Notes: generated from the letters alone by a model not told the origin. Numbered from the stretch's first letter, positions 7,001 to 23,745 are shown. The stretch is 64,000 nucleotides of DNA from Candidatus Poribacteria bacterium (GCA_963665235.2 CAXXLX010000001.1:416001-480000); one strand, 5' to 3'. Made by a program: numbers and translations.

Positions 7001-7332
7001 GCGCCGAATGCTGTCCCTGCGCCGCTACTATAGAGAATATTTTGTCCATCGGCATCCCATCCGATGATGTCCGCGCTGCTTCCTTGATAGGTGAGCCGTT
7101 TTGCCTCGCCGCCGAGGGCAGGCATGAGGTAAACTTCTGAGGGGCCCTCTTCTCGTCCTGCAAACGCAAGCTGTTCTCCATTCGGAGATAAGCGTGGTGT
7201 GCTGGTGGCACCGAGGTTTGAGGTAAGTCGGCGAGCAACACCCCCGCTGATTGGAACTGTCCACAGGTCGTCCTCACAAACGAACACGAACGTTTCTTGA
7301 TAAATTGTTGGAAATCGATAGTATCCTGACAT
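4051..7332 (-). CDS. Tricorn protease (peptidase S41 with beta-propellers and PDZ)
   Basis: WKRYRGGTAG, GELGTSHAY, GYVHIPDM, DVRYNGGG, AGSDGDIF (catalytic Ser) and GKRTWGGVIG; no signal peptide. Confidence 0.95.
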   Translation of the reverse strand: MSGYYRFPTIYQETFVFVCEDDLWTVPISGGVARRLTSNLGATSTPRLSPNGEQLAFAGREEGPSEVYLMPALGGEAKRLTYQGSSADIIGWDADGQNILYSSGAGTAFGAWIWQISTEGGEPQRLPYGPANHIAFGDAGGVVLGRLTRDPARWKRYRGGTAGQLWIDTDGDGQFQPLAPVNSNFTTPMWIGERIYFISDHEGIGNIYSCLPTGEDMQRHTHQETYYCRAAQTDGTRIAYHAGAELHIYEIENDTNYLVNVEFRSPRVQRQRKFVSTSKYLQEYAPTPDGQALSLTVRGKPFTMSNWEGAVLQHGERNGTRYRRTHWLNDGKRILTLSDADGEEALEIHTCDGSAEVQRLSTLDIGHVRQLSVCPKGDDLKDQLLIVNHRFELLHIELETQELRVLDKSHYNRIQGATWSPDGKWIAYSFPATETTSSIKLCNVETGETTFVTHPEFNDFSPAWDPEGKYLYFLSAREFNPVYDALHFDLGFPTATRPLLVTLQKELRNPFIPEPRPLEDEKDKDKEDKEKEEKSAEKKDEKSNEKEKKKRKPITIELEGIMQRVIAFPYPHGRYGQIDGIEGKVIFTSFPVRHTLNAPDTEDTANTKGKLHVYDFKEQKKEVLVAGIDNFQLSRDAKTLVYRTGDKLRVIKAGKKAEDDAKDNKGGAANRHTGWIDLNRVKAAIIPTAEWHQMYREAWRLQRDYFWTEDMSDVDWENVYQRYLPLLSRVATRAEFSDLMWEMQGELGTSHAYESGGDYRSSPNYAIGFIGADFAYDEETNGYRITHIPNGDAWERTKDSPLNAPGINVKKGDILLAIGGQNVSKTVTPGELLVNLAGQEVQATFQRAENDEKHVVTLKVLRGERELRYREWVSRNRQYVHEKTDGKVGYVHIPDMMGRGYAEFHRGFLAEVSYPALLIDVRYNGGGHVSQLILEKLSRRRIGYDVPRWGTPHPYPDASVLGPMVAVTNENAGSDGDIFSHCFKLMKLGKLIGKRTWGGVIGISPHQAFVDGGRTTQPEYSFWFVDVGWRVENYGTDPDIEVDYRPQDYADGCDPQLDRAIAELLQEMADNPPQLPDFGERPRLTLPTLPKVE

Positions 7333-7460: not shown

Positions 7461-10445
7461 TTAGTTTCCGTTAAGGCGAGCCTGCTCCTCTGAATTCGGC
7501 GGGGGGCCGAGCCAGAGTTTTACGGCGGGCGTACTTGCGACACGCCGGTTGCCAACAGCTGCGTTAATAACAAAGGTATAAGGTCGAGTTTGCCTATTTC
7601 CCATGAACGGGTTCCGCCGTATTTCGTTGTTTCCGCTGGCGACGATATTCGGCACAAGCGTCAAGATTGCCTCCGTTTCATTCCTTCGGAGGACAGTAGT
7701 TTGTCGCTGGAGTCGAACGCCTAAGGGCAAGCCGACCGCTGTTAGATTCATGTTCTGCCGATTCCCACCCCGTCTGTCAACCTTCACGGTGATTTCAACC
7801 GGTCCGTCTGGAGTCACTACAATTTCGTCGGGAACTGCGGTAAGGATGATAGGTGTGGATTCCGTCACGCTAACAACGACGTTTTTGCGCTGAACAGTCC
7901 GGTCGTTGTTCTGAATACGGTAGACTTCAATCGGTGTTGCAGCGCGTTGGATTTGGCTCCCGGAGCCAGTCGTAACGGTGCCGACAACCTGTACGACGCT
8001 ATGTGTTAGGTCAGCGTCTGCTGCAGCGGTTAGGGTGATATACCCTTGGTCATTTCCGCCTTCAGAGAGGATAGCACTCTGGCTGGCAGTAATCCCTTTC
8101 GGTAGATTTTCGACAGAGAGCAAAATCGGTTCAGTAAAACCGACGCGGCGTTGGAGTGTAACATCCAATAGGATTGTTCCGCCCCGGCCGATATTTGGGT
8201 TATCGGGTGTCACCGAGATAGCGAAATCGGGTGCAGTAGGGCGCACGTCTAGGTGATAAACATAGCCTGCGCCACCTTTGCCGGCGACATCTTCTACTCG
8301 GACTGCATAGACACCGGGTTGTGCAAAGCTGTAATCGATAATAGCGTTGCGTCGTCCGCCTACGCCTGCGTTATTCCGTAGCACTGCGCCTTCAGCATTC
8401 AACAGGGTTAGGGTGGGGCTCAGCGGTGAGTTCAATTTTTCTGCGGATAGTTCAATAGAATAGCCGCCAATGTCCGCGAAAAATCCCCACGGCCCGTAAC
8501 CGTTCGTAATCTTGACAAGAATTTTGTTTTTCCCTTTAGAGATAGGCAGTTCAATGACATCGTCCGCGCGGCGTAGGGGACGGTGAACGTATTTACTGAA
8601 GATGAGTTTATCGTTCACCCATATCTTAATCGTATCGTCGGAGCCGAGGGATAAGAGATATTTTTGGTCCCGGTCAGACTCAATATAGGTGAGTGCGTAG
8701 CCAGTGACATCGTCTTCAGGTACATTTGAGAAGACGTTTTCGCCTCTGCGATTGGTCCGGTACCAACTGATTTTGCGTCCGGCTTTACCGTCGTATTCTT
8801 TCTCTAAATCGATTTCAACTTCAGGCGGATAGACGGTATCAAATCCTTTTTCATCTGTGTTATCAAAGGGGTGTATCACCCACCACGGGCCGAGGCGTGA
8901 GCCTTCAGCAATTGTGAATTGGTAATAATCGGCTTCTCCTGGTTCAGAGATGCGTCCACTTATGGCACCTGGCGTTGTGATGTCCTGTGCATTTTCGATA
9001 CGTTTTGCGATGAGTTGGCCGAGGCGTGTGACTTCATCTGCAACGAAAGCGATGAGACGGTCGCGTTGGGTGGGGGTAATATCAGCATTCTCCTTTTCGG
9101 ACATGCGTGTGATAGTATTTTCCCACTGTTCGGCGGAGAGCGCACGATTGTCTGGTGAGCGGAGCTCATGGCAGGCGGTGCATTTGGCTTGGAAAAGGAT
9201 TTCGGATTCGGCATTCCTTGCCAGTTCTCCGTTTTCTGCATCAGATTCCGTAGAGTCATCTGTTTTCGGATTGCTGCTGTGGGTTGCCGATGCGGACACC
9301 TCAACATCTTCGGTAAACTCATTGGCGATGAACGGAAAAATGCCGTACGGGGTCCGGATAAGTTTGAGCCCCGGCTGCTCACTGCTACTGAGTTCAACCT
9401 GCCAATCAGTTTCCGGGAGGTTTTCGCCGCCAATTTTCGCTTTAATCACCTCGCCAATTTTTCCACCAGTTGGAAAAAGGTAGGTGTTATATGGAACAAC
9501 GCCACTTGTCAAACGGTAAACGGAGTCTGGGTTGCCACGATAGAGCAGGTCTCGCACCCGAAGGTAATAGGTGCCATCCGCAGGTAAAGTGTAATCAATC
9601 AGCGGGTCAAGACTATAGAATCCGTTGTTTCGGATAAGTTCTGTGCCATGTTCGTCAAAAAGGTAGAGGGTTGGATTGAAAAACTGCTGACTGACATTGT
9701 TAAGCCGATAAGCCTTGACGTTGAAGACACACCTGTCCCCTTTTTTTCCTTCAAAGACGTAATAATCTTCATCACCGCCAGGGTTAACAACCCCGTTTAT
9801 GATAATAGGCAGCTGAATAGCTGTCGCGGATTCCGGGAGGTTATTGGATTCAGTTTCAAGGATATCCGCAGCGGGACTCACCTCGAAGGGCCATGCGGTT
9901 GATGTGCCTTTTTTTCCGACGATGCGAATTTCCCGCAGTCCAATGGGGGCGTCCGCTGCGATTGCGAATTCAGCGGTTAACCCGCCGCTCGCTCTTGCTG
10001 CGGATTTGAGGTAATGGACAATCTTGGTTTGGTCATCGGCACTGATTTCAGCCCCCTTCTCTGTTATCATGCGTGCGACTGTGACTTCCCACTGTGTAGC
10101 TGTCATTGAGCGGTTGCTTGGGGAGCGAAGTTCGTGACACTGTCCACAATTTGCTTCAAAAACAGGTTTATGGGTCTCGTCCACTTTTCCACCGCCAGCG
10201 TGGAGCGTACCAGCAACCCCAGGGGGCCCCTCTACAATTAAGGTATGTGCGCCCCCTAAATCTGAGCCCTGTATTCTCACGTCGACGTTCATTCCGACCT
10301 TCCCACCTGCGGGAAAGAGCGAATTCAGGCGTGGCGTGTCTTGTGCAAATAGGGAGACAGGCGCGCAGAGTAAAACTATAAACAGCAAACGTAGGAGGGG
10401 TTGCAAACCCCAATAGAGACCGCTATTTTTTTTATGGACATTCAT
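7461..10445 (-). CDS. Secreted PPC (pre-peptidase C-terminal) repeat protein with two c-type heme motifs
   Basis: Signal peptide; LNSLFPAGGKVG and E.ESNN...A..I.LP.IING...GDEDYY PPC-like repeats; CGQCH and CTACH within a duplicated domain. Start placed at ATG 10445 after GGAGG. Confidence 0.8.
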   Translation of the reverse strand: MNVHKKNSGLYWGLQPLLRLLFIVLLCAPVSLFAQDTPRLNSLFPAGGKVGMNVDVRIQGSDLGGAHTLIVEGPPGVAGTLHAGGGKVDETHKPVFEANCGQCHELRSPSNRSMTATQWEVTVARMITEKGAEISADDQTKIVHYLKSAARASGGLTAEFAIAADAPIGLREIRIVGKKGTSTAWPFEVSPAADILETESNNLPESATAIQLPIIINGVVNPGGDEDYYVFEGKKGDRCVFNVKAYRLNNVSQQFFNPTLYLFDEHGTELIRNNGFYSLDPLIDYTLPADGTYYLRVRDLLYRGNPDSVYRLTSGVVPYNTYLFPTGGKIGEVIKAKIGGENLPETDWQVELSSSEQPGLKLIRTPYGIFPFIANEFTEDVEVSASATHSSNPKTDDSTESDAENGELARNAESEILFQAKCTACHELRSPDNRALSAEQWENTITRMSEKENADITPTQRDRLIAFVADEVTRLGQLIAKRIENAQDITTPGAISGRISEPGEADYYQFTIAEGSRLGPWWVIHPFDNTDEKGFDTVYPPEVEIDLEKEYDGKAGRKISWYRTNRRGENVFSNVPEDDVTGYALTYIESDRDQKYLLSLGSDDTIKIWVNDKLIFSKYVHRPLRRADDVIELPISKGKNKILVKITNGYGPWGFFADIGGYSIELSAEKLNSPLSPTLTLLNAEGAVLRNNAGVGGRRNAIIDYSFAQPGVYAVRVEDVAGKGGAGYVYHLDVRPTAPDFAISVTPDNPNIGRGGTILLDVTLQRRVGFTEPILLSVENLPKGITASQSAILSEGGNDQGYITLTAAADADLTHSVVQVVGTVTTGSGSQIQRAATPIEVYRIQNNDRTVQRKNVVVSVTESTPIILTAVPDEIVVTPDGPVEITVKVDRRGGNRQNMNLTAVGLPLGVRLQRQTTVLRRNETEAILTLVPNIVASGNNEIRRNPFMGNRQTRPYTFVINAAVGNRRVASTPAVKLWLGPPPNSEEQARLNGN

Positions 10446-10495
10446 GTGTATTCCCTCCAAAAGAGCTATCAGTATTTAGTTCCGACAAACACGGG

Positions 10496-11545
10496 TTAAA
10501 ATTCTTGGGTTAATCTACGGTTTCTGATATTCCAAATCCGGACTTTTCCATCTCGGCTGCCCGCAGCAACAAGGTTGCCTGTAGGGCTAATCTGCACAGC
10601 ATAGACCGCATCTGTCGGTTCATTAAACGTACGCCGCCGGTTACCTGTACGGAGATTCCATATAATTACGGAGGTGTCGGCACCGCCGGAGGCGATAATC
10701 TCTTGATTATCCCAAACCCCGCAGTCAACGCTATAAACGGGCCCCTGATGCGCATTGTATTGGCGAACGAGTGCGCCGCGGGTCTCATTTTCACCGTTTT
10801 GCGTGACACGCCAAGAACGGACAACGTTATCGGCGGACCCAGACACAATTAACCCATCCTCCGCTGCATAAGCGAGCGAATAAACCGAATCATCGTTCCC
10901 ATCAAAATTGACGAGGACGGTATAGGTTTCCGGGTGCCACACTTTTAAGGTTTTATCCTCACTCCCGGTGACAAAATAGTTGCCATCCGGATGGTACAAG
11001 GTGCAGAGCACCCTGCCAACGTGTTGTGTGAGCCATTTCGCCTGTTCGTCTATAGGTAGGGTTTCGTCGTGCTGCGATAAATCGATAACAGTACTGTATT
11101 CATCCATGCTTGCGGTGAGCAGTTTTGTGTTATCCGGGCTGATAGCGATAGATTCAACGGTATCGCCATGGATTTCGAGTGTTTTAATGAGGTCTGCCGA
11201 TGCGACATCCCAGATGCGTATTTCGCCACTTCGGGCAGCCAATCCGCCGCTTGCAAATAGGCTTTTGCCATCCTTTGAAAACTTAAGGCATCGCACCCGT
11301 CCAGCGTGCGGTTCATAAGTGTTAACTAGCTGCTGCGTCTCCAAATCCCAAAGTTCGACCCACTGATATTTTCCGACAGCTACTGTTTTGCCATCCGGAC
11401 TAAATTGCAGGGCCCAAACTGGAGATAAGGGGACCGCGTTTTCTTCAACGGGATGCTCCTCTGCCACCGATAGGGTGCCAGGCAGCGTGAAGAGTGCTAA
11501 CGTTATGAACACAGATAAGAGAAGATAGACGTAATTACTTTTCAT
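10496..11545 (-). CDS. Secreted WD40-repeat protein
   Basis: Several WD40 repeats (FSPDGK..VA, SGSADN.VR.W, GSRDGKVRIW); signal peptide from ATG 11545. Confidence 0.9.
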   Translation of the reverse strand: MKSNYVYLLLSVFITLALFTLPGTLSVAEEHPVEENAVPLSPVWALQFSPDGKTVAVGKYQWVELWDLETQQLVNTYEPHAGRVRCLKFSKDGKSLFASGGLAARSGEIRIWDVASADLIKTLEIHGDTVESIAISPDNTKLLTASMDEYSTVIDLSQHDETLPIDEQAKWLTQHVGRVLCTLYHPDGNYFVTGSEDKTLKVWHPETYTVLVNFDGNDDSVYSLAYAAEDGLIVSGSADNVVRSWRVTQNGENETRGALVRQYNAHQGPVYSVDCGVWDNQEIIASGGADTSVIIWNLRTGNRRRTFNEPTDAVYAVQISPTGNLVAAGSRDGKVRIWNIRNRRLTQEF

Positions 11546-11547
11546 CC

Positions 11548-11635
11548 CGCGTCCTCCGTGTCCTCCGCGATAATCCGCGATTTGTGGCTTACTCGCCCCC
11601 GCAAATGCGAACTCATAAAATTGTCCAAAGTTCAG
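11548..11635. mobile_element. MITE family B remnant (one terminal repeat)
   Basis: TCCTCCGCGATAATCCG and terminal ATTGTCCAAAGTTCAG are shared with the complete copy at 40631-41012. Confidence 0.6.
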
Positions 11636-11660
11636 TCTTTTTAGAGACATATTCGATGGC

Positions 11661-11924
11661 TTATTGTGTGCTATTTCCGTTGAGGTCAATATCCTCTAAG
11701 GTTGTAGCGGTGAGTATCTGATCGAAGAGTGTATCAAGCCGTGAGAATTCCTTAATTTCTCGGATTTCCTCTACAACAGTATCAGAGATTTCAGGGAATT
11801 GGTGCGTCAGCAACTTGATAACATACTCTTGTTTGGTGCGGAATTCACCTTGTTCAATGCCTTGTTCAATGCCTTGTGTGATGCCGCGTTGCATTACCTG
11901 TTCGTAAAAAGGAGATTCTTGCAT
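11661..11924 (-). CDS. Stand-alone Rpn C-terminal/DUF4351-like small protein
   Basis: MQESPFYEQVMQRGITQGIEQGIEQG... with GGAGG RBS; no upstream nuclease domain. Confidence 0.75.
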   Translation of the reverse strand: MQESPFYEQVMQRGITQGIEQGIEQGEFRTKQEYVIKLLTHQFPEISDTVVEEIREIKEFSRLDTLFDQILTATTLEDIDLNGNSTQ

Positions 11925-12036
11925 GATTGCCTCCAATTTCTCTTGCTAACGGTTTCCATTAACCAACAGCCACAAGCCATATAATAGTAGGCAGGTGTGA
12001 GGCGCGAACGCCTCACACTACAAAGCTATGCTTGAC

Positions 12037-13350
12037 TTAAGACAGAACCCCTCGGATGGGCCTACCACCGCGTGATAGGACAATTCGGACACCATCCGGT
12101 GACTCTATGCTCTGCTCATAATCGATGCCAAGGCTCTGATAGATAGTTGCCGACAGGTCTTCTGGACGCACTGGCGTTTCAGCTGGCTCCATCCCAAACG
12201 GGTCGGAGGCACCGACTACCTGTCCGCCTTGGACACCACCGCCTGCCATCATGATAGAGAAAACACGCGGATGATGGTCGCGTCCTGCGTTGCGGTTAAT
12301 GACCGGGGTTCTACCAAATTCACCCATCGCCAGCACCATAGTGCTTTCGAGGAGCCCACGCTCAGAGAGGTCACTGATTAAGGTAGCCATCGTCTGGTCA
12401 AAGGCGTTGAGTTTGCCTGGGAGCGATGAGAAGATGTTGTTATGGTTATCCCATCCGCCATTGCTGACGGTAACGAAGTTGACTCCCGCCTCGACAAGTC
12501 TTCGTGCAAGGAGACAGCTCTGTCCGAAGGTGTCGCGCCGGTATGCATCTCGGACCTTCCCCGGTTCTTTAGAGAGGTCAAATGCGTCGCGTGCATCGGG
12601 GGAGCTCATAAGATTGTAAGCGGCGGTATAGAAGCTATCCATTGCCTCTGCTGCAGGGTTTCCTGATTCATATTTCTTGAATGCAGCGTCAATGGCTTCG
12701 CGCAGCGTTCGGCGGTTTTCAACGCGTTCAAAGGTGACACCTCTTGGCGGTTGTAAATCGCGAACTTTGAAGTTTTTGCTTGCCGGGTTGCCGCCTGGTG
12801 AGAACGGGGCAAGAGATGCACCCAGGAATCCTCCACCGCCATAAGCTACCGGGCCTGGGACAGCGATGTAGGGGGGCAATGCGCTCCGCTGTTCTTTGAG
12901 TTTGGAAACGACAGCACCGTGTCCAGGGACAGCGAAGCCGGGAAGCGGTTGATACCCTGTCATCATGTAGTGTGTACCCCGCTCATGCGCGCCTTCTGGT
13001 GAGGTCATTGAGCGGATAATGCAGAGTTTATCTGCCTGTTGGGCAAGCTTCGGCATGTGCTGACTAATCTGGATGCCGGCTACGTTTGTCGGAATCGGTT
13101 TGAAAAGCCCGCGTATTTCTTCGGGTGCTTCGGGCTTAAGATCCCACATGTCAAGGTGGCTTGGGCCGCCGCCTAACCAGACAAGAATGACGGATTTAGC
13201 GGTGCCTTGTTTCGCCGTAGGTGAAGCAATTGCTTGTAACCGGAAGAAGTCGGTCAGGCCAAAACTAAAGAGGCCTAGCACCCCGGCTTTAAGCAGGTCT
13301 CTGCGATAGAATCCTTCACAGTCTGTGTGTGTGCAGTTTCTTTGGGACAT
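12037..13350 (-). CDS. DUF1501 family protein (Tat signal)
   Basis: RRDLLKAG, VWLGGGPSHLDMWDLKP, FGQSCLLARRLVEAGV, GWDNH and GEFGRTP..N..AGRDH. Confidence 0.93.
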   Translation of the reverse strand: MSQRNCTHTDCEGFYRRDLLKAGVLGLFSFGLTDFFRLQAIASPTAKQGTAKSVILVWLGGGPSHLDMWDLKPEAPEEIRGLFKPIPTNVAGIQISQHMPKLAQQADKLCIIRSMTSPEGAHERGTHYMMTGYQPLPGFAVPGHGAVVSKLKEQRSALPPYIAVPGPVAYGGGGFLGASLAPFSPGGNPASKNFKVRDLQPPRGVTFERVENRRTLREAIDAAFKKYESGNPAAEAMDSFYTAAYNLMSSPDARDAFDLSKEPGKVRDAYRRDTFGQSCLLARRLVEAGVNFVTVSNGGWDNHNNIFSSLPGKLNAFDQTMATLISDLSERGLLESTMVLAMGEFGRTPVINRNAGRDHHPRVFSIMMAGGGVQGGQVVGASDPFGMEPAETPVRPEDLSATIYQSLGIDYEQSIESPDGVRIVLSRGGRPIRGVLS

Positions 13351-13436
13351 AGTTAGTCCTCCTCGTATTTTGTACGCGTGTCGGTAGAATTTACCGAGGG
13401 CGCGGTTGAACTTCCCATTAACGTTTGATATCTGGT

Positions 13437-14897
13437 CTACAATCTTTGTCGAAGTTTAAGCGTATTGAGCCATTTTTCAGCTTTCGGTATTGCCGTATCA
13501 AACGGCTCTTTCATCTCAAAGCATTCGGTTTGTCCAGCGTAGATGTGGTGCCAATCGACAATACAAGGTATTTTTCGTTTTTGTAGGTTTCGCATAAGAT
13601 AACCGCGTACCCTTGCCCGCGTATTGCGGGGTGCATTGCAAATGGCATAATTAATTTGTTGTTCAGTAATAATGCGTCTCATACATCCTTCATTCTGAAG
13701 GGCGTAGAAGATGCCTTTTTCCAGGTCGATGTTGTGATATTCTAGGTCAAGACTTTTAAGCCATGAATCGTTCCAATGAAGGTCTTCTTCGGCGATGAGT
13801 GCGTCGAGAAACCATTTCTTCGCCGCCCAATCAATCCGTGTTGTAAGCCGGGTCCAATCCGCTTCAAGGTCGTTGAGGACAGCTTCCCATTGTGTGAGAA
13901 TCCATTCGGTATCGTCAGTAGGTTCGGTTACCATGTCTTTGACGAAATTTACATATTTACGTTGAATATCAACGGCAGAAAGTGTTTTTCCGTTACGCAA
14001 GTCGACCTGCCATGTGAACGTTGCATCTCGTGAGATGTGGCGAATGGCGGCGATTGGGTCAGCGATGTCAAGTTCTGGCAGCGGCAGTCTTTCCCCGTGG
14101 GTTTCATAAAACCGCTCGATAGCGTCAAGTATGAGTGCGGTTGTGCCGACCTTGAGTGCGGTTGCATATTCAGACATATTGGAGTCTCCGACGAGCAGAT
14201 GGAGTCTGCGATATTTGGTATAATCGCTAAGGGGTTCATCGCGTGTATTAATAATGGCTCGGCTGAACTGTATCCATTCATAAATTTCTGTGACGATGTG
14301 GTCTGCGCGTTGTGAGATTTGGTATCCGTGAAAGTCGTCGACGCTGTATTGTCCATCTCCAAATTCGAGGATGTCGTCGTATCCGCCGACTCTGCCCGCG
14401 CCTGCGTAAATTTGGCGTGTGACAAAAAAGGGCAGCAGGGTTGGGATGACAACCCGATAAAACGGTATATCCCTACGGACTTGGAAGTTTTCGTGGCATC
14501 CGAAGGTGGCCCCCGTGAAATGGTCAATATTATTTTTGTAGAAGGCGATATGGTCTGCCAGCCCGGTTTCGTGTAAAATTGCGGTAATGACGCGCTCGAT
14601 AGCTTTATCGTAAGCGATAAGGTCAAAGATATTTGCACATTCAGGCGTAGCATATTCAAGGTGTCCCATGTCAATGTAGAGTCTACCGCCGTTGAAGAGG
14701 AATCCTCCGTTCCCGGGGGGTTCACCCCAGTCGCGATAGTGAAGGTCAGGGATACCGAGTTTGAGTGCTTTAAAGACGTGGTCTCGGACGCGTGCTGAGA
14801 TGCCTTCAGGGGAGACTCTTGCGCGTTTGGTCTGTATCGCCTGTCCCTGTATCATGCACCCAAATTCTGTTTCGATGCCCATGATTCTGTGTGCCAC
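13437..14897 (-). CDS. pafA: Pup/UBact-protein ligase (PafA-like)
   Basis: RIMGIETEFG, NGGRLYID.GHLEYATPEC, KNN.D...TFGCHEN, INTRDEP and RRLHLLVGDSNMSE; lacks the Dop loop; likely GTG start at 14897. Confidence 0.88.
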   Translation of the reverse strand: MAHRIMGIETEFGCMIQGQAIQTKRARVSPEGISARVRDHVFKALKLGIPDLHYRDWGEPPGNGGFLFNGGRLYIDMGHLEYATPECANIFDLIAYDKAIERVITAILHETGLADHIAFYKNNIDHFTGATFGCHENFQVRRDIPFYRVVIPTLLPFFVTRQIYAGAGRVGGYDDILEFGDGQYSVDDFHGYQISQRADHIVTEIYEWIQFSRAIINTRDEPLSDYTKYRRLHLLVGDSNMSEYATALKVGTTALILDAIERFYETHGERLPLPELDIADPIAAIRHISRDATFTWQVDLRNGKTLSAVDIQRKYVNFVKDMVTEPTDDTEWILTQWEAVLNDLEADWTRLTTRIDWAAKKWFLDALIAEEDLHWNDSWLKSLDLEYHNIDLEKGIFYALQNEGCMRRIITEQQINYAICNAPRNTRARVRGYLMRNLQKRKIPCIVDWHHIYAGQTECFEMKEPFDTAIPKAEKWLNTLKLRQRL

Positions 14898-14969
14898 GTT
14901 GCATTCCTCTCGCCGTTTAGTTATATACTGCTGTAGGTTCGATTGCAAACCAGCAGCCTGCCTACGTAC

Positions 14970-15737
14970 TTAAATTTTCCGGGCTGTCTGAATTTCTGCT
15001 TCGCTAAGTAGCCGAAATTTGATGTCCCCAGGTTGTGTAGCATCTAATACGGCTGCCTCAATCTCCCCGGTCTCTAGTTCCGCCTGAATGATGTCATCTA
15101 TCTGTTCGTCCGGTATTTCGGTATTCTCTTTTATATTTTCTAGGTTTTTGCTTAACCCTCTGCCGACCGCCCACGTTTTTAAGGCGAGCTGTAGGGCATC
15201 GGCAAGTTCCAGTTTCGTGGGCTCTGCTGTGTTATCGAGGTAGTTTTGCATTGCCATTTCAATTGGCTCGGTTCCGCCGACGACAGCGAATTGGTTCTGT
15301 GTTTTCACGTTGCCATCGTAGTTGATGTGGGTAAACTGTGTTGTTGTCCCGGTAGCTCCGATTTCAGCGAGCAACATTTTGATGATGTAAGCCTCGCCGA
15401 CAATTGCTTCAAAGGCTTGCTTGAAAGAGTGCGCCAAAACGAAATAGGTGAGCCGGTGTAAGTTTACATCTTCGGTTGCGCTCTGAAAAGCTTGGACACT
15501 TGCGGTATCTGTGACGAGCATTCGGAGTCGTTCGATATCCGCAGGGTGCCCGATTGCAGAGAGGGCAATTCTGTCATGAACTTCAAAGATTTTTCGCGCT
15601 CCCCCACCAACGGTTAAGAGTAGGCTCCCGTGTGCATAAGGTACACCAACGACTGGACTTCTGAGCTGCAGTTGGTCTTCTATATAGTCGCGCCGGTCCT
15701 GAATTGCTTCAATCCAGCGATAGGGCAAGTCTCTCAT
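14970..15737 (-). CDS. prcA: 20S proteasome alpha subunit
   Basis: RKIFEVHDRIALSAIG..ADIERLR motif; located between prcB and pafA. Confidence 0.9.
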   Translation of the reverse strand: MRDLPYRWIEAIQDRRDYIEDQLQLRSPVVGVPYAHGSLLLTVGGGARKIFEVHDRIALSAIGHPADIERLRMLVTDTASVQAFQSATEDVNLHRLTYFVLAHSFKQAFEAIVGEAYIIKMLLAEIGATGTTTQFTHINYDGNVKTQNQFAVVGGTEPIEMAMQNYLDNTAEPTKLELADALQLALKTWAVGRGLSKNLENIKENTEIPDEQIDDIIQAELETGEIEAAVLDATQPGDIKFRLLSEAEIQTARKI

Positions 15738-15755
15738 AATTTTATCCGTTTTGCG

Positions 15756-16664
15756 TTATTCTGTTCGGTGCTCAACTTGTGCTTCTGCGTAGCATTCGGT
15801 TAGGTATGGGTCAGTGAGTGTTAGCACACCGTCCCGGGTGACAGTTTTGACAGTGGGGAAAATTTCGGTTTTTGCGTTGTAGCCGCTTGTGGCTGCGTCA
15901 TATTCACTCGCGATGTCAAAAAGTCTTAACATAGTGATAGTTGCTTGACGTTCATCCATCTTTTCCAATCGGGTTTCGCCCCATCGATTGAGATATTGTA
16001 GTACGCCCCGTATCCAGATGGAGCCGGAGCCGGTTGTTGCAAAGTCGACGTTCTCAAAGTGTGCGCCGAGTGCGTCATAGAAAAAGATTTTTCCGCCATT
16101 TTGTTCCGTTTCCGGTGCTTCAGGTGCATACAAGGCAAAAATCGGTATGACTGCGCCGATGCCTTGCATCGCCATAGGCAAGTTTTCACGTATAAGCCGG
16201 GACAATGTCCGCAATTTTCCCTCAACACTGAGTTCTTGAAGTTGGCTCCGCCGAAAATATTGGAACGAGTGTTTGAGCACTCGCGCCATCTCATAAGCGA
16301 TAGCAGGTGACCCGGAGATAGCGAGTACAGAGTGCGTATCTACCGGTATAACTTTCTCAGCCCTATCATGAATGACAGCGGTGCCCGCGGTTGCCCGGCG
16401 GTCCCCTGCGATGATTATGCCTTTTTGGTACCGCATGGCGATGACTGTTGTGGCTTCCGCGATTTCCAGCGTATCGGCATGTCTCGACATCCGCTGTGGG
16501 TGTTCCTTAAGAACGTGTCGTGGCGAGTTCATACCTGCGGTTTGGAATGGTGCACGCTCCGGATGTTCCATGAATTCAGACGCGTCGGGTGCAGGATTCG
16601 CTGCCGCTAGCAAGGCATCAGCCTGTTTTAAAAGGCTGAGAAAGTCTCCTTTATGATTCATCAT
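15756..16664 (-). CDS. prcB: 20S proteasome beta subunit with propeptide
   Basis: Propeptide followed by TTVIA...IIAGDRRATAG; LSVEGK; TGSGS. Confidence 0.92.
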   Translation of the reverse strand: MMNHKGDFLSLLKQADALLAAANPAPDASEFMEHPERAPFQTAGMNSPRHVLKEHPQRMSRHADTLEIAEATTVIAMRYQKGIIIAGDRRATAGTAVIHDRAEKVIPVDTHSVLAISGSPAIAYEMARVLKHSFQYFRRSQLQELSVEGKLRTLSRLIRENLPMAMQGIGAVIPIFALYAPEAPETEQNGGKIFFYDALGAHFENVDFATTGSGSIWIRGVLQYLNRWGETRLEKMDERQATITMLRLFDIASEYDAATSGYNAKTEIFPTVKTVTRDGVLTLTDPYLTECYAEAQVEHRTE

Positions 16665-16855
16665 TCCCCCGTTCGTTGCCGATATCTCCGGGATTGGTCT
16701 TTGTCAACCCGCCGCATCCGTTTGAGGAGTTCTTGGGTGTCCGGTCTATTGACATCTGGGCGTTTGGGTTCACTATCATCTCCACCATCGCCCGGTTCAA
16801 TCGGTTTTACGGGTCGCTGTTTACGTTCGGGAAAATAGACAATTTTAGGGTTCAT
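16661..16855 (-). CDS. ubact: UBact ubiquitin-like (Pup-like) small protein modifier
   Basis: 64 aa, Pro/charge-rich, LLKRMRRVD, C-terminus RRYRQRTGE matching the R[TS]G[EQ] UBact signature; located between dop and prcB; GGAGG RBS before ATG 16855. Confidence 0.9.
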   Translation of the reverse strand: MNPKIVYFPERKQRPVKPIEPGDGGDDSEPKRPDVNRPDTQELLKRMRRVDKDQSRRYRQRTGE

Positions 16856-16902
16856 CAGAAATTCCTCCATCTCTTTCGGTCTAGCACATGGCTTGTGCTG
16901 TT

Positions 16903-18420
16903 TTAATTTAAACCTAATTTCTCAACGAGGGTTTGAGGGTTAGGGGATTGGTCAAGTGCTTCATTATACTGACGTGCGATTTCTGGGTTTGCCAGTCCAT
17001 TCATATTAATAGTGACGGGACTGCCATTGACTGTGAAGGTAATGCTGTCCCATTGGACGGTTTTTATAGAGTCCTCAAATTTATTGAGGGCTTTTCCACG
17101 AAAATAGGCGCGCGTGTCCGAGGGCGGGTTGGACATAGCCTCATGAATCTGTTCGTCTGTTACAACGCGCTGCATCGGCAGCCCATAGTACAACCCTTCC
17201 TCTTGGTGAATGTTATGATATTCTAAATCGAGGCTCTGTAGCCAGGGGTCATCCCATTGAACGCCTTCCTCTTCAGCGAAGGTTTCAAGCAACCACTTTT
17301 TAGCGACCCAATCGAGTCGGTCGATAAGGGTCATGGGGTCGTTTTCGAGGGCATCGAGCGTCTGTTCCCAGTTTGCCAGTATCCAGTCGGTATCACTATT
17401 TTGATGTGCAACATATTTTTGTGCAAGTGCAAGGTACTCGCGTTGATGGTCAATTGCGCTGATAATTTTGCCATCTTTTTTCTGCAATATCCATCGATAG
17501 GTTTGGTCGTGTGAAATAGTTTTAATGGTATCGATAGGGTTAGCGATTGCAAGTCCTTCAGGGATACGTCGTTGTTCAATTAAATCGATGACGAGTGCGG
17601 TTGTGCCGACCTTGAGTGCGGTTGCGTATTCAGACATATTTGCGTCTCCGACGATACCGTGAAGTCTGCGATATGTTTTTGGGTCCGCGTGCGGTTCGTC
17701 TCGGGTGTTGACGATAGGTCGTTTGTGCATTGTATCCACACTCGCTTCGACGTGAAAGAAATCGGAGCGTTGTGCAAGTTGAAAATGTCCGGGTGTTGCA
17801 AGTCCCGCTTCGGTTTCAATGCCGATTTTGCCGGCTCCGGCAAAAATTTGCCGAGTGACGAAAAAGGGCAAAATGCTGGCTTTGAGATAATCGAAGGGCA
17901 CCTCCCGTGCCATGAGATAGTTGTCGTGGCATCCGTAGCTGTGTCCGTAAAAATCGGTGTTGTTTTTGTATAGGATAACGCGTTTTCCGAGCTGTTCACT
18001 GCGAGTTTCAGCACATTTCTGTAGGATACGTTCTCCGGCCTTGTCGTGTGCAACGAGTTCGAAGATATTTTGACACTCCGGTGTTGCGTATTCTGGGTGT
18101 GCATGGTCATTGTAGAGTCTTGCGCCGTTGATAAGGATTCGGTCACTTTTGATTTCAAGAAAGGAGCGGCCAGATTCTTGTTCGGCCCGTTCGCGGTCTC
18201 GCTTTTCCTCCTTAACTTCATCAGGGTGATTATTGAGTTGTTTTGCGCGGAAGCCGCGTTCATCTCGAAACGGGTCTTCCCCCCGGTAATCCCAAATCGG
18301 CAAAAAAGGCTCGCGCCGATAACTCTTAATCAGCTCAATGGATTCCCTGACGGGGTCAATTTGTTCGGCATTTTCAAGGGTAATGCCGTATTCGGTTTCA
18401 ATCCCAAAAAGTCTGTGCAT
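16903..18420 (-). CDS. dop: Dop-like deamidase/deconjugase
   Basis: RLFGIETEYG, Dop loop WDYRGEDPFRDERGF, NGARLYNDHAHPEY, KNNTD..G.SYGCH and IVNTRDEPHAD. Confidence 0.88.
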   Translation of the reverse strand: MHRLFGIETEYGITLENAEQIDPVRESIELIKSYRREPFLPIWDYRGEDPFRDERGFRAKQLNNHPDEVKEEKRDRERAEQESGRSFLEIKSDRILINGARLYNDHAHPEYATPECQNIFELVAHDKAGERILQKCAETRSEQLGKRVILYKNNTDFYGHSYGCHDNYLMAREVPFDYLKASILPFFVTRQIFAGAGKIGIETEAGLATPGHFQLAQRSDFFHVEASVDTMHKRPIVNTRDEPHADPKTYRRLHGIVGDANMSEYATALKVGTTALVIDLIEQRRIPEGLAIANPIDTIKTISHDQTYRWILQKKDGKIISAIDHQREYLALAQKYVAHQNSDTDWILANWEQTLDALENDPMTLIDRLDWVAKKWLLETFAEEEGVQWDDPWLQSLDLEYHNIHQEEGLYYGLPMQRVVTDEQIHEAMSNPPSDTRAYFRGKALNKFEDSIKTVQWDSITFTVNGSPVTINMNGLANPEIARQYNEALDQSPNPQTLVEKLGLN

Positions 18421-18485
18421 ACTTCGCGCTTTCCCTTAGTAGTCAGCACTTTCCGTGTGATGGTGCTGCGATGAAGGGGAATAGT

Positions 18486-20204
18486 CTAATAAATCACGGA
18501 ACTCGCTGTGTTTCGCTCTTCCTGTTTCTCAGGTTGAATAGGTGTGACCTTGACAACATTCATCGGGTCATAATCGAGCAGTTTGAGCCAATCTTCGCTA
18601 GCGTCACTCGGTGGGAAAATGTCGTTTTCGCTATATTCTGCCTGGAACGCTGCGAGGAGGTCCGCGATAGAGATACCTATTTCGGTGTCGGGGTCAGCAA
18701 TTGCTCGTTTCATTGCGGATTCCTTTGCTCGCTGGACAATAGATTCAATAATTGCCCCGCTACAGAGATGGCCACGATAGAGAATGTCGCGTCTACCGCT
18801 CCGGAGGACAACTTCAAGGAAGCGGTTTTCTGCTGTTTCCTGAAACATCTCATCGACGACTCGCGTAATAAGTTGCTCAATTTTTTCTTCGGCAGTTATA
18901 TCGTCCGAATCTTTCTCAATGGGAAGGTCCGGGGTTAAGTAGATGCTGAAAATATCCTTGGCCGCTGTTTTATTCGGTCGGGTGACTTTGATTTTTCTAT
19001 CAATTCGCCCTGGGCGGAGGATTGCTGGGTCGATGAGGTCCGGTCTATTGGTTGCAAGAATAATAACAACATCTTGTAGCGGTTCAATGCCATCCATTTC
19101 GGCACAGAACATTGGGACGAGTGTGTTAGAGATGTTGTGTGCCCGCATAGCCCTGCGGGTGCCCAAAATGGACTCCGCTTCATCAATAAAGACGAAGGCG
19201 AGTTTACCCTCAGCCCGTTTTTCACGTGCTGTTTTAAAGATTTCGCGTACCTTCCGTTCAGATTCACCGAGCCACATGTTCAGAATTTCGGGGCCCTTAA
19301 TATGGAGGAAGGTTGCCTCAACGTCCGCGCCAGTTTCCGTTTTGAGACGTTCGGTTAGATTGTAAGCCGTCGCTTTCCCGATGAGTGTTTTTCCACAGCC
19401 CGGAGGTCCGTGGAGTAGAAATCCCTTCGGCACACTATACTGAAATCGTTTAAACAGTTCCGGGTGTAGAATTGGCTGTTCAATCGTATCCTTAATCCGC
19501 TGGATAGTCTCCTCAAGTCCACCAACTTTCGTCCATGGAATCTGTGGTACGGCCTCCAAGGCGTAATTGTTCTGTTCAGTTGAGGCTATCCGTTCAATAG
19601 CGACCTTTAAGCTTGCATCAAGCCGAACTTCGTCTCCCGTTTTGAGTTTAACATTGGCGAGGTCGGTTCCGCGTTCTATGATAACAGATTGGAGGCTCGG
19701 TTCCGAGCCGACGCGCAGTCTACCATCCGGTAGCACTTCAGCGATTTTCGCAATCGGGCCCGATTCGCCGTAACCAATTTGACCTACGATGACAAACGCC
19801 TCGTTCAGCAGGACACTGACCCCTTTTTTGAGAGGGTCGGTCTCCAGCTGTGGGTCGATGTTTGCATAGTATTCGGCACCGCCCATAGTGACACGCGCGG
19901 TGTCGTCTTCGGGTACTGTGAGCAGTGTCCCGATACGGTTCGCTGGCGCGGTGAGCTTTTCAATATGCTCCTCCATTTCAGCGTGGATGCGAACGGCTTC
20001 CTGTTGAATTGCTTGAACCCTTTGTTGGAATTCGCCTTCATCGCTGATGATAGAGCGGCGTAGTTCCATGAGCCACTGCCTGCGCCAATCTTCTACAGGT
20101 GTCTCTTCAATAATTTGATGTATCAGTTGTAAGGAATAGCCGGAGCTAGCTTCGTTTTCTTCAAGCTCTATGTCCTCTTTCCTACGTTCCTTCTTATCGT
20201 ACAT
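18486..20204 (-). CDS. arc: Proteasome-associated AAA ATPase (ARC/Mpa)
   Basis: N-terminal coiled coil, OB-like region, GPPGCGKTLIGKA, IKGPEILNMWLGESER, FIDEAES and ATNRPDLIDPAILRPGRIDRKI. Confidence 0.93.
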   Translation of the reverse strand: MYDKKERRKEDIELEENEASSGYSLQLIHQIIEETPVEDWRRQWLMELRRSIISDEGEFQQRVQAIQQEAVRIHAEMEEHIEKLTAPANRIGTLLTVPEDDTARVTMGGAEYYANIDPQLETDPLKKGVSVLLNEAFVIVGQIGYGESGPIAKIAEVLPDGRLRVGSEPSLQSVIIERGTDLANVKLKTGDEVRLDASLKVAIERIASTEQNNYALEAVPQIPWTKVGGLEETIQRIKDTIEQPILHPELFKRFQYSVPKGFLLHGPPGCGKTLIGKATAYNLTERLKTETGADVEATFLHIKGPEILNMWLGESERKVREIFKTAREKRAEGKLAFVFIDEAESILGTRRAMRAHNISNTLVPMFCAEMDGIEPLQDVVIILATNRPDLIDPAILRPGRIDRKIKVTRPNKTAAKDIFSIYLTPDLPIEKDSDDITAEEKIEQLITRVVDEMFQETAENRFLEVVLRSGRRDILYRGHLCSGAIIESIVQRAKESAMKRAIADPDTEIGISIADLLAAFQAEYSENDIFPPSDASEDWLKLLDYDPMNVVKVTPIQPEKQEERNTASSVIY

Positions 20205-20331
20205 TGTGAACGTCTCCTCAGGCAAAAGGGGATGACTTTACGATAGAGTTTACCACATTTGCAACAATTTTGCGAATCTTTACGACGTACGTTTTGCAAA
20301 AAAACGTCTTAAATATGGCATTTGTTACCAT

Positions 20332-20478
20332 TTTAACATATTTTAAAAATAGATGCAAGCAAAAAAATGCATATTGCCAAAAATTAGCCGGACCTGCCGC
20401 CTTAAATACGCTAAACTCGGGTGACTGTAGCAATTTATATCAGTTTAACATATTTTAAAAATAGATGCAAGCAAAAAA
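20332..20478 (-). promoter_or_regulatory. Tandemly duplicated promoter upstream of the proteasome operon
   Basis: 35-bp direct repeat at 20332-20366 and 20444-20478; each copy reads TTGCAT-N17-TAAA(A/C)T with an extended TG on the minus strand. Confidence 0.6.
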
Positions 20479-20616
20479 TGAGGGTCAAATCAAAAAAGCT
20501 TGTTTTTTTGTGTTAAATAAGGTATACTAATTGTGTAAGATAATTTTCTGATTGCCCACGCCCGGTATGCGTATCACACGAATTAATTTTGAATCCTACT
20601 ACTACAAAATAGACTT

Positions 20617-23600
20617 ATGAACACTCTTCACGATTTAAACGAAAAACAGAAAGAAGCCGTAACACATGAAACTGGTCCACTGCTCGTCATTGCGGGGCCC
20701 GGCACGGGGAAAACAAAGGTCATCACACAGCGCATTGCGTACCTCATTCGGCATCACGGTGTCAAGCCGGAACGAATCCTTGCGATTACTTTTACCAACA
20801 AGGCAGCGCAGGAGATGCAGGAACGGGTTAGCGCCGAACTCGGCGCGCCGCACGGTGGTAACGTTAAGGTCGGCACCTTCCATGCGTTTTGCGTCGGGGT
20901 TCTCCGGAATCACGCTGAAGAAATTGGGTTGAGCCCAAACTTTACTATTTTCGAGCAGGGAATTCAGGACGAAATCTTAATAGAGGCGACCCGCGAACTG
21001 AATCTCAACCGTTACGACTACCCCGCATGGCTGCTACGGAATATTATCGGGGACGCGAAGTGTAAACTCCACAATATACCGGATGCTTTGGAGATTTCTC
21101 CTGACATTATCGCCAAGATAGATGACCCGATGGCAAGTGAGAATATTGAAAAATCGCTGAAACTTTATCAGCATAAACTATCGGAATATAAGGCCTTGGA
21201 TTTTGGCGACCTGCTCGTAAAAACGGTCGAGCTGCTTGAACAGGTGCCGAAGGTGAAGGCGGAGTATCATAAAAATATTTCACATATCCTCGTTGACGAG
21301 TACCACGATGTGAATAGAGCACAGTACCGCCTGCTACAACTGTTGTGTGCGCCCCCAGAACGGAATCTTACGGTCGTCGCTGATGAAGACCAATCGATTT
21401 ACAGCTGGCGCGGCTCTAATCCACAGTATATTGAGGATTTTAAAGCCGATTTCACCCCGGAAACGGTTGAATTAGACGAGCACTACCGGTGTAGCGAGAA
21501 AATCTTGCGCGCTGCGGAGGAGGTTATCAGCAATAATCCAGAGCGACAGAAACAGCACACGCTTAAAACCCATAAAGATGCAGGACGCGACATCTTTCAT
21601 TACACCTTTGAAACACCCGTAGAGGAAGCCCAGCGTCTTATAGATATTATCCAAAAATTAGTAAAGGAACGCGGGAACTCTTATCGTGATATTGCGATTT
21701 TTTACCGGAAACACAATATTGCAGACGTGTTAGCGGAAAGGTTGCTAAAAAGAGGCATTAAATTCCAGCGGATTCACCCGACCAATTCCTTCGATGAGGA
21801 AAACAGCAGAGGCATCCTCTCTTATCTCCATTTTATCCAGTGGCAACTCCCCCGAGACCTTGAACACGTTATCAATTACCCCGAAAAACGGATTGACGAC
21901 CTGACCTGGGTTCGGCTCAAATGGTTGGCACAACGCAAAGGACTAGAATTAGTAGACCTTTTGAAAGATATTGAGGCGTACCCGCAAGACGTTGGGCCTT
22001 TAACTCAGCGGAATGTTCGTGAATTTTGGCAGCAGTTTGAAAAATTATCGGCTGAAATTAAGGGAGAAGAGATTATTAAAATCATCCCAAAACTCTTCGA
22101 TTATTTGGAATTGTCGCGTTCCCCTTACCGTGCTAAAGAGGTGGAAGAAATTGAAAAACAACCGGAGATGCCGAATCTGGGAGTCACGCAGGATATCCTC
22201 TACAGTGCAATTGACTTAAATCAACAGATTCAGATGACCGTGAATCCCGGCATTGACGAGTATTGTGCTGCACAGATTATCCAGCAAACGTTTAAGACGT
22301 ATCTCGGCAAAAATGTGCCAATCCACTTTTTGGAGTCAGAGTCGGGTGGCAAACCGATGCGGGATGCAGACGGTGTGCATCTGCTGATAGGTGATTTCAA
22401 CGAACTTGGTGAGAAGGGTGAAAGGGCGCGGACAATTCTTATCGGCACGGCGGTTACCGAAGATACAGAGATAACCCAGTTTGGCGCGGAGGGGGTGCGA
22501 AGCATCGCTGTGCTTAAACTGTGTCAACGTCTGGTGAGCCGTTTTGAGAGCCCGAATATGGCAGACATGGTCATCTATGACTTGGAAACGACCGGTGTCA
22601 AACCGAAAACTGCAAATATCGTTGAGATTGCTGCGCGCCGGCTCAGTGCTATCGGCGATGAAGTTGAACGTTATTACCAACTTGTGAAACCGCCAGGCGG
22701 ACATATACCTAAGGAGAGCACACGCATACACGGCATAGACGAAGAGACTGTCAAAAATGCTCCGAGCATCGAGATGGCCCTCCCAGAATTTTGTGGATTT
22801 ATCCAGGACCGCATCCTGATTGGGCACAATGTAGCGCGATTTGATAATCCTATCCTTGAGCGCGACCTACAGCACTATCTGAAGCGCGGTTTGCCAAATC
22901 CACATTACGATACGCTTGTCACGGCACGGCGGCTTTTTCCACGTCAACGGTGTAATCTGGGGGCACTCGCTGAAAAGTTTGGCATTGAACACGGCCGCTT
23001 ACATGGTGCCTTGGAGGACGTTGAGGTCAACCGGAAAATCTTTAAAGAGCTCATCAAAATTGATTTACAAAAACGTGAGGTGAAATCTCTGACAGAATTT
23101 CTGCCGCTTGTCGGTGCGGGTATTCTTGCGAAAATGGATGCGCTACCTGAGGGAAAAAACTTAAGGGAAGTCAGGGCATTTTTAAATGCTGCGAAACGGT
23201 TTGTTCGAACGCATCAGCCGGCTTTACCGGACAATACACTAACTGGACTGAACGAGCAGGTTGAAACGTTGATTGAGCAGTTAGCGCAACTCGATATTCT
23301 TCCCTCTCCGGAGGATACCGAATGGCTGGAACGTAGGTCGAAATTCCTGAACACTCTCGTCCAATTTGAAAAAATCGGGGATGGGCATCAGTTGACTAAC
23401 TTCCTGGATTATCAGAAATTGCTCACCAATTTTGACGAAATTGACGATAAGAGCGAACAACTGACACTGATGACGTTGCATGCCGCAAAAGGCACAGAAT
23501 TTCCGATTGTGATTATCCTCGGCATGGAGGAGGGGAGTTTTCCGATGTGGCAGCAGGATATGACACAAGAGTATATTGAGGAGGAACGGCGACTTTTCTA

Positions 23601-23745
23601 TGTGGGCATGACACGCGCGCAGGAGCAGCTTTATCTCTCTTCCACTGTCTACCGGACCGGGGATTATGAGCGTTCTACCTCTATGTTCGTCCGTGAGGTG
23701 CCATCTAACTACGTCGTCAAATGGAGTCCGCGGCGTGGTCTGTAG
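20617..23745 (+). CDS. UvrD/PcrA-family helicase with an inserted DEDDh (DnaQ-like) 3'-5' exonuclease domain
   Basis: AGPGTGKT, ILVDEYHD, QSIYSWRG, TLHAAKGTEF and EERRLFYVGMTRA; insert with YDLETTG, GHNVARFD and HGALEDV. Confidence 0.92.
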   Translation: MNTLHDLNEKQKEAVTHETGPLLVIAGPGTGKTKVITQRIAYLIRHHGVKPERILAITFTNKAAQEMQERVSAELGAPHGGNVKVGTFHAFCVGVLRNHAEEIGLSPNFTIFEQGIQDEILIEATRELNLNRYDYPAWLLRNIIGDAKCKLHNIPDALEISPDIIAKIDDPMASENIEKSLKLYQHKLSEYKALDFGDLLVKTVELLEQVPKVKAEYHKNISHILVDEYHDVNRAQYRLLQLLCAPPERNLTVVADEDQSIYSWRGSNPQYIEDFKADFTPETVELDEHYRCSEKILRAAEEVISNNPERQKQHTLKTHKDAGRDIFHYTFETPVEEAQRLIDIIQKLVKERGNSYRDIAIFYRKHNIADVLAERLLKRGIKFQRIHPTNSFDEENSRGILSYLHFIQWQLPRDLEHVINYPEKRIDDLTWVRLKWLAQRKGLELVDLLKDIEAYPQDVGPLTQRNVREFWQQFEKLSAEIKGEEIIKIIPKLFDYLELSRSPYRAKEVEEIEKQPEMPNLGVTQDILYSAIDLNQQIQMTVNPGIDEYCAAQIIQQTFKTYLGKNVPIHFLESESGGKPMRDADGVHLLIGDFNELGEKGERARTILIGTAVTEDTEITQFGAEGVRSIAVLKLCQRLVSRFESPNMADMVIYDLETTGVKPKTANIVEIAARRLSAIGDEVERYYQLVKPPGGHIPKESTRIHGIDEETVKNAPSIEMALPEFCGFIQDRILIGHNVARFDNPILERDLQHYLKRGLPNPHYDTLVTARRLFPRQRCNLGALAEKFGIEHGRLHGALEDVEVNRKIFKELIKIDLQKREVKSLTEFLPLVGAGILAKMDALPEGKNLREVRAFLNAAKRFVRTHQPALPDNTLTGLNEQVETLIEQLAQLDILPSPEDTEWLERRSKFLNTLVQFEKIGDGHQLTNFLDYQKLLTNFDEIDDKSEQLTLMTLHAAKGTEFPIVIILGMEEGSFPMWQQDMTQEYIEEERRLFYVGMTRAQEQLYLSSTVYRTGDYERSTSMFVREVPSNYVVKWSPRRGL

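Follow-up and report, generated by a model that had tools for sequence, protein, structure and literature searches.

The window considered here is a stretch of 64,000 nucleotides from a Candidatus Poribacteria bacterium (GCA_963665235.2, CAXXLX010000001.1:416001-480000; positions are counted from its first nucleotide), and the subject is an operon of six genes on its minus strand, between 13437 and 20225, that encodes the protein modifier UBact together with a proteasome. The genes, all intact, co-oriented and closely packed, encode an ARC/Mpa-like ATPase, a Dop-like enzyme, the modifier, the proteasome subunits PrcB and PrcA, and a PafA-like enzyme (Table 1); the ATG of prcB and the stop of the modifier gene overlap by 4 bases. 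The window is part of a 4.36-Mb contig (C1) in a 5.3-Mb assembly of four contigs (G000), a sponge-associated metagenome-assembled genome (MAG) that is 92.6% complete with 5.65% estimated contamination. The same contig carries a second complete operon, of the canonical Pup type. Two complete, deeply diverged tag-proteasome systems thus lie on one chromosome-sized contig, and the host seems to have two ubiquitin-like routes of degradation working in parallel. It is very probable that the UBact-type operon works by a Pup-like scheme as one of two complete, diverged systems that are kept across most of the phylum. The original prediction had described a complete, co-oriented arc-dop-modifier-prcB-prcA-pafA run in the window, and Pfam and NCBIfam searches agree with it: the Pup_ligase, UBact and Proteasome profiles that it proposed as a check all matched. 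The three termini that it singled out, RTGE of the modifier, SSVIY of the ATPase and the A|TT junction of the beta subunit, can all be read in the sequence.

Table 1. Genes of the UBact-type operon in the window
Feature	Position	Strand	Remarks
ARC/Mpa-like AAA+ unfoldase (UBact system)	18486..20225	minus	579-residue open reading frame from TTG; C-terminus SSVIY
Dop-like deconjugase (putative), 505 residues	16903..18420	minus	Pup_ligase 1.1e-167
UBact modifier, 69 residues from first ATG	16661..16870	minus	PF20513 5e-19; C-terminus RTGE
PrcB, proteasome beta subunit	15756..16664	minus	PF00227 1.1e-19; propeptide of ~71 residues, A|TT junction
PrcA, proteasome alpha subunit, 255 residues, very divergent	14970..15737	minus	PF00227 2.3e-05
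PafA-like enzyme, presumed UBact ligase, 503 residues from TTG	13437..14948	minus	Pup_ligase 1.2e-136

The modifier places the operon in its family. It scores 68.2 bits against the UBact model PF20513 (cut-off 27.8) and 75.2 bits against the NCBIfam model NF033388 (cut-off 35), and its gene has the position that characterizes UBact: it follows the Dop-like gene and precedes prcB, in a locus that also encodes Mpa-like and PafA-like proteins. Lehmann, Udasin, Livneh and Ciechanover reportedly described loci for UBact conjugation and a proteasome in Gram-negative phyla in BBRC in 2017, and the C-terminal motif given there for UBact is said to be R-[TS]-G-[EQ]. The window operon shares with such loci the gene set, the gene order and a tag that ends R-T-G-E and passes both models; nothing essential in the operon differs, the terminal Tyr of its ATPase being a private addition. 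The closest UBact genes belong to Candidatus Poribacteria genomes, mostly MAGs, many of them single chromosomes. For comparison the UBact-type locus was taken from 38 relatives and the Pup-type locus from 39, with the genes of each locus assigned by BLAST against both reference protein sets of this genome. Counts of UBact-type orthologues out of 39 include this genome, and the compared genomes are all kin, so that ortholog counts are not independent events. An identical six-gene order occurs in 37 of the 38 relatives' loci, the lone exception being broken by a contig end, which together with the matches to family models rules out a chance pattern of open reading frames. The operon is a genuine, intact and typical member of an already described, database-modelled family, and its original description as a UBact-type, non-actinobacterial operon holds.

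Orthologous UBacts begin at a Met aligned with the sixth residue of the longest frame, and the modifier likely starts at this second Met (M6, position 16855) to give a protein of 64 residues. In Poribacteria the C-terminus is RTGE in 36 of 39 UBacts and RTGQ in the other 3; RTGQ is also present in two of three loci of the Verrucomicrobia lineage, both from Chthoniobacterales. RTGE is therefore a signature of the UBact family and not a peculiarity of this operon. The terminal Glu of this genome's UBact requires no deamidation, as the original prediction had argued from the RTGE end. The RTGQ-ending UBacts of relatives suggest that the family of Dop-like enzymes probably retains a deamidase capacity; the accompanying proposal that Dop acts only as a deconjugase fits this genome and does not extend to the family.

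The second operon is located at about 3068873-3075490 of C1 (minus strand; 8873-15490 of locus L005), 2.6 Mb from the window operon and with recA directly upstream of it. Its genes encode, in order, an ATPase ending in GGTYL, Dop, a Pup of 65 residues ending in GGQ, PrcB with a G|TT junction, PrcA and PafA. The six-gene architecture and the strand logic are the same in the two operons, whereas the canonical GGQ, GGTYL and G|TT of the Pup-type operon are replaced by RTGE, SSVIY and A|TT in the window. Five of the six Pup-type proteins pass the NCBIfam equivalog cut-offs, PafA being the exception (518.3 against 551.3), and contig C1 has four Pup_ligase genes in all. The identity between corresponding proteins is 39% for the ATPase, 41% for Dop, 34% for PrcB, 28% for PrcA and 34% for PafA. 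BLAST finds no hit between the UBact and Pup tags of this genome, and the net charge of their last 30 residues is +5 and -11, respectively. The window operon had first been taken to stand in this organism for the Pup system, a view that the complete canonical Pup operon on the same contig corrects.

The spread of the pair was sampled in Poribacteria (176 genomes) and in one order of Verrucomicrobiota (151 genomes). In the order to which the host belongs, 41 genomes were searched, and UBact was found in 39, Pup in 40 and at least four ligase-family genes in 39. In the whole phylum, UBact and Pup were each found in 167 genomes and both in 161; among the 40 relatives, 12 are listed as one contig with both tags on it. 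Six genomes have only UBact, and these are 73-91% complete, while three genomes from two outlying families have neither tag. Another six have only Pup. One of them, G010 (86% complete), has four ligase-family genes with the UBact-type Dop at a contig edge, and a gap in the assembly probably accounts for its missing UBact. In the remaining five there are two or three ligase-family matches, as against four in G000, and the four Pup-only genomes checked have three proteasome-family genes each, as against five in G000. The whole UBact-type module is gone from these five genomes, which include all three genomes of one family. In the Verrucomicrobiota order to which the Chthoniobacterales-titled genome G042 belongs, the ligase family occurs in 59 genomes, 52 with exactly two ligase-family genes and none with four full-length ones. 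The presence of both tags in most of the phylum, set against no genome with four full-length ligase-family genes in the sampled Verrucomicrobiota order, indicates that Poribacteria stably maintain the pair of Pup and UBact, which is not general among UBact hosts. Pup-like conjugation is called sporadic outside Actinobacteria in a passage of Iyer et al. 2008 (PMC2588565), and sporadic homologues in several phyla are mentioned in part of Hecht et al. 2020 (PMC7947786). No publication on a genome that holds both Pup and UBact, or on the proteasomes of Poribacteria, was found in a literature search that had supplements and the 2017 UBact paper outside its reach.

Several gene arrangements of other kinds were seen in the surveyed genomes. 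The third ligase-family match in G050 and G051 is partial and lies in a longer Pup_ligase-family paralogue (G050:C195:6730-7932 and G051:C272:3086-4282, frames of 650-660 residues) that covers model positions 69-440 only; this paralogue occurs in a Poribacteria family without UBact. The fifth proteasome-family gene of this genome (G000:C2:6708-7223, ~190 residues) is present also in genomes without the UBact module and is probably HslV-like, judging by its length and by control hits with E. coli and B. subtilis. In the Verrucomicrobia lineage, loci L171, L176 and L177 have UBact-PrcB-PrcA, and the flanks retrieved with it contain neither an ATPase gene nor a Dop-/PafA-like one; in G042 and G043 the Dop-like and PafA-like genes are on contigs other than that of UBact-PrcB-PrcA.

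The ATPase contains the Pfam domains AAA, Prot_ATP_ID_OB_N and Prot_ATP_ID_OB_C, scores 444 bits against TIGR03689 (cut-off 504.75), and has M. tuberculosis Mpa as its closest solved structure (6.6e-101). A monomer model of moderate confidence, with a mean predicted local distance difference test (pLDDT) score of 66.7, has a coiled-coil helix at residues 47-91, two OB domains and an AAA module; its last strand is at 557-562 and residues 566-579 are unstructured, with pLDDT < 50. The true start is probably the ATG at 20204, seven codons within the TTG-started frame, because orthologues keep that Met in 'MYD'; the original prediction had ended the operon at this very position.

Of the 39 Poribacteria orthologues of the ATPase, 38 have a Tyr-less tail that ends in V-I or V-V, and only this genome has the additional Tyr; a terminal Tyr is likewise absent from all 73 readable tails in 80 further loci, which overlap the first set. 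The gene ends GTG ATT TAG or TAA in relatives and GTG ATT TAT TAG here, the Tyr being added by a tandem duplication of TTA (window 18486-18494) that is absent from all 38 orthologues compared. The additional codon is present in a contig from a DNA run, which has no differences, and also in a contig that comes from an RNA library of another study, belongs to a near strain and has only two gaps, both elsewhere. Its presence in these two contigs indicates that the terminal Tyr codon is probably genuine in this lineage. More distant tails were sought among 1.84 billion cluster representatives (50% clusters), sorted by closeness to the UBact-type or the Pup-type ATPase. Representatives nearer the UBact type end in NVI, GVI, QAI, SII or QII, with three exceptions (TIE, GLT, ATG), and those nearer the Pup type end in GQYL, GHYL or GHYF or have no tail; in a quick tree the two tail types form two clades. 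According to a section of PMC8142254, GQYL is the motif of Mpa and is needed for gate opening in M. tuberculosis. Given that need, the aliphatic V-I tail without an aromatic residue, a family-wide trait as far as these alignments tell, is a real departure from GQYL, and an entire clade of proteasomal ATPases manages without a Tyr that is required in M. tuberculosis Mpa. The claim of a special SVIY docking tail is thus right in that the tail is non-canonical; the trait of the family is the aliphatic end, the Tyr comes from a private duplication, and 'SVIY' is not a motif.

The subunits of the 20S particle depart from their actinobacterial counterparts to different degrees. PrcB scores 164.1 bits against TIGR03690 (cut-off 191.9). 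Its propeptide, 71 residues when counted from the first Met, has a conserved NHKGDFLxLL motif at its N-terminus and ends at the junction EIAEA|TTVIAMRY. At A|TTVIAMRYQKGIIIAGDRRATAGTAVIHDRAEKV Thr1 follows the propeptide, and Asp17 and Lys33 are present as expected of an Ntn-hydrolase, so that cleavage is predicted at this site. When 78 beta subunits are aligned, position -1 is occupied by G in 14, S in 14 and A in 10 of the 38 UBact-type sequences, and by Gly in 38 and Ala in 2 of the 40 Pup-type sequences; Ala is at this position also in three loci of the Verrucomicrobia lineage. Part of PMC4792962 names Gly(-1) as the residue attacked in the autolysis of characterised proteasomes. UBact-family beta subunits, to judge by this alignment, evidently accept any small residue at -1. 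Since relatives have G, S or A there, A|TT is not a separate processing rule: the Ala reported as non-canonical is indeed present, and the rule drawn from it falls away. PrcA is the more divergent subunit, with 67.5 bits against TIGR03691 (cut-off 139.05) and a match to M. tuberculosis PrcA at 2.5e-10. Its Lys49 (in ARKIFEV), invariant in 38 orthologues, is aligned with the Lys of LQKISEL in M. tuberculosis PrcA, which we take to be K52, the residue that binds the C-terminal carboxylate of the activator.

Hecht et al. 2020 (PMC7947786, Table 1) give positions that discriminate Dop from PafA, with which the two ligase-family enzymes can be compared. PafA is distinguished by the residues L-D-V-G-S-H around the catalytic Asp, where one residue is inserted, and by a His at position 25 of the alpha-loop (PMC7947786), and Dop by D-H-A-H at the catalytic Asp (PMC7947786) and by a Dop-loop with a conserved Trp (PMC8599861). 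Among the 39 orthologues of the upstream enzyme, 38 carry D-H-A-H next to the catalytic Asp, at least 36 have the WDY motif in a Dop-loop of 88-96 residues, and 34 have QRxDFF; in these genomes the Pup-type Dop carries the same three features. The upstream enzyme scores 487 bits against the Dop model TIGR03688 (cut-off 492.3), compared with 387.7 against the PafA model. With D-H-A-H and the Trp-bearing loop both in place it belongs with Dop, and a role as deconjugase is predicted. The downstream enzyme has the PafA-type His in a QRAxHI motif in 37 of 38 orthologues (QRADHI here), and scores 363.9 bits against TIGR03686 for PafA and 356.5 against Dop, far under the cut-off of both (551.3 for PafA). 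Orthologues and the DNA itself suggest that its gene likely starts at GTG 14897, with a GAGAGG stretch upstream. In a maximum-likelihood tree of 48 sequences the ligase-family enzymes group by system with weak support (67.2/78), and the approximately unbiased (AU) test gives 0.589 for this topology and 0.412 for the orthologous one, values that do not separate the two. A cross topology was rejected by the same test (0.0008). Five columns have system-specific swapped charges in the UBact-type and Pup-type enzymes.

Scanning of positions 12900-20700 for promoters and terminators gave 9 and 13 sites, compared with 9.0 and 9.4 expected from shuffled sequences. In two metatranscriptome libraries, contigs that match the window at 93-97% identity span 28 of 30 and 22 of 30 operon bins, and one RNA-library contig bridges the gap between the ATPase and Dop genes. 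These contigs are a hint of expression that concerns presence only, and not level, strand or operon structure.

The working of the operon can be outlined by analogy with the actinobacterial Pup system, on whose homology every step rests. The M. tuberculosis system has homologous parts in the same order, with a coiled-coil/OB/AAA ATPase that carries a flexible tail, a Dop with D-H-A-H and a Dop-loop, a beta subunit with Thr1, Asp17 and Lys33, and an alpha subunit with a pocket Lys. The differences lie in the tag, which is basic and ends in RTGE for UBact whereas Pup is acidic and ends in GG[QE]; in the UBact-family ATPase tail, aliphatic and without Tyr; in the -1 residue of PrcB, Ala here; and in the ligase, D-M-G-H-L in the UBact type compared with D-V-G-S-H in M. 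tuberculosis. The window operon, ending its tag in RTGE and its ATPase in SSVIY, thus has neither the GG[QE] end nor the usual Tyr-containing ATPase end of the canonical Pup system. In the proposed scheme, the PafA-like enzyme would activate the γ-carboxylate of the terminal Glu of UBact with ATP and join it to lysines of target proteins. The ARC/Mpa-like hexamer would bind the tag through its N-terminal coiled coil, unfold the target and pass it to the 20S particle of PrcA and PrcB, docking on the alpha ring by its flexible tail with the conserved aliphatic V-I end in place of a Tyr-containing GQYL/HbYX end; the alpha ring would retain a pocket lysine for this docking. PrcB would mature by an autolysis that depends on Thr1 and cuts behind a small residue at -1, here Ala, and the Dop-like enzyme would take the tag off, a deamidation step being unnecessary for a UBact that ends in Glu.

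Several observations weigh against this scheme. All five non-tag proteins of the operon are below the NCBIfam equivalog cut-offs (TIGR03686-03691), and their functions are consequently extrapolated over 28-41% identity. The downstream enzyme has D-M-G-H-L at the catalytic Asp in 38 of 38 orthologues, without the insertion of PafA (D-I-G-C-H-P), and keeps a short Trp-containing loop (DWGE in 32 of 38), so that it looks like a third variety, intermediate between Dop and PafA, and its presumed role as ligase is assigned partly by elimination. The Tyr-less tail of the ATPase may bind the 20S particle without opening the gate, and the extra Tyr of this genome moves the carboxylate of the tail by one residue. 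The RNA libraries may contain carried-over DNA, which limits the hint of expression. No UBact conjugate is shown in the literature searched, and no biochemical work on UBact was found there, in line with the earlier remark that the modifier is little characterised biochemically.

Two other accounts of the locus have less in their favour. The genome is a MAG, and its estimated contamination leaves room for a chimera that mixes a Pup-bearing with a UBact-bearing organism. This explanation of the coexistence is effectively refuted by the location of both operons on the one 4.36-Mb contig, by the 12 single-contig relatives that carry both tags, and by the recurrence of both tags in 161 of 176 genomes from many assemblies. 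According to the original prediction, special rules of docking (SVIY) and processing (A|TT) set this operon apart from other proteasome systems. Both sites are unlike those of characterised proteasomes, in which GQYL is the Mpa motif (passages of PMC8142254) and Gly(-1) is attacked (passages of PMC4792962), but the terminal Tyr occurs in one of 39 orthologues and in none of the 73 readable tails, and the -1 residue is G, S or A inside one order. Neither site is specific to this operon, which makes the account improbable.

How far the two systems are separated in the cell is a different question. It is possible, at odds somewhat below even, that Poribacteria have two mutually insulated ubiquitin-like degradation codes per cell, one in which an acidic Pup is served by an ATPase with a Tyr tail and by a 20S particle of its own, and one in which a basic UBact is served by an ATPase with an aliphatic tail and by a second, very divergent 20S particle, each system having its own ligase and deconjugase. 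On the opposite assumption, either ligase would take either tag and either ATPase would dock on either 20S particle, and the UBact operon would be a redundant or condition-specific back-up. In favour of such interchange, all components are homologous, the four ligase-family enzymes have conserved catalytic cores and both alpha subunits retain the pocket Lys. However, the tags have no BLAST similarity and oppositely charged C-terminal halves (+5 against -11), and the charges of their partners differ as well. In 12 genomes each, the net charge of the UBact-type PafA-like enzyme is -13 to -39 against -1 to +7 for the Pup-type PafA, and that of the UBact-type Dop is -17 to -32 against -7 to -26; the 60 residues before the OB domain have a mean charge of -4.5 in UBact-type ATPases (28 of 39 found by motif) and of +0.3 in Pup-type ATPases (37 of 39). 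There are two fixed kinds of ATPase tail, genomes without UBact also lack the entire UBact-type module, and both complete sets have been kept over a long time in 161 of 176 genomes. Free exchange between the systems is therefore rather unlikely, and the upkeep of both complete machineries across the phylum argues that Pup and UBact are not interchangeable.

The UBact operon itself is ordinary for its family, and its value lies in its context, the phylum-wide coexistence of two complete, divergent systems. Poribacteria are a natural system in which to ask what sets the specificity of tag, ligase, unfoldase and 20S particle. If the two codes are insulated, Poribacteria would offer a naturally occurring pair of orthogonal tag-proteasome systems in prokaryotes, and with it direct evidence for UBact as a modifier with a function of its own and not merely the Gram-negative form of Pup; orthogonal tag-protease pairs are useful parts for engineered protein degradation. 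The predicted tryptic remnants on lysine are TGE (+287.11 Da) for UBact and GGE (+243.09 Da) for Pup, and because these masses are distinct, existing sponge-microbiome proteomes could be searched again for both tags together.

Other large genes are found in the window on both sides of the operon. A tricorn-type protease (Tricorn_C1, PDZ_Tricorn, Peptidase_S41, PD40) is encoded on the same strand 6 kb downstream, at 4051-7332. Divergent from the operon, at 20617-23745 on the plus strand, is a gene for a UvrD-type helicase whose C-terminal half is interrupted by an RNase_T exonuclease domain. At 28835-35128, again on the minus strand, a protein of 2097 residues is encoded that contains a gingipain-type Peptidase_C25 domain, its propeptide and a C-terminal FlgD_ig domain.

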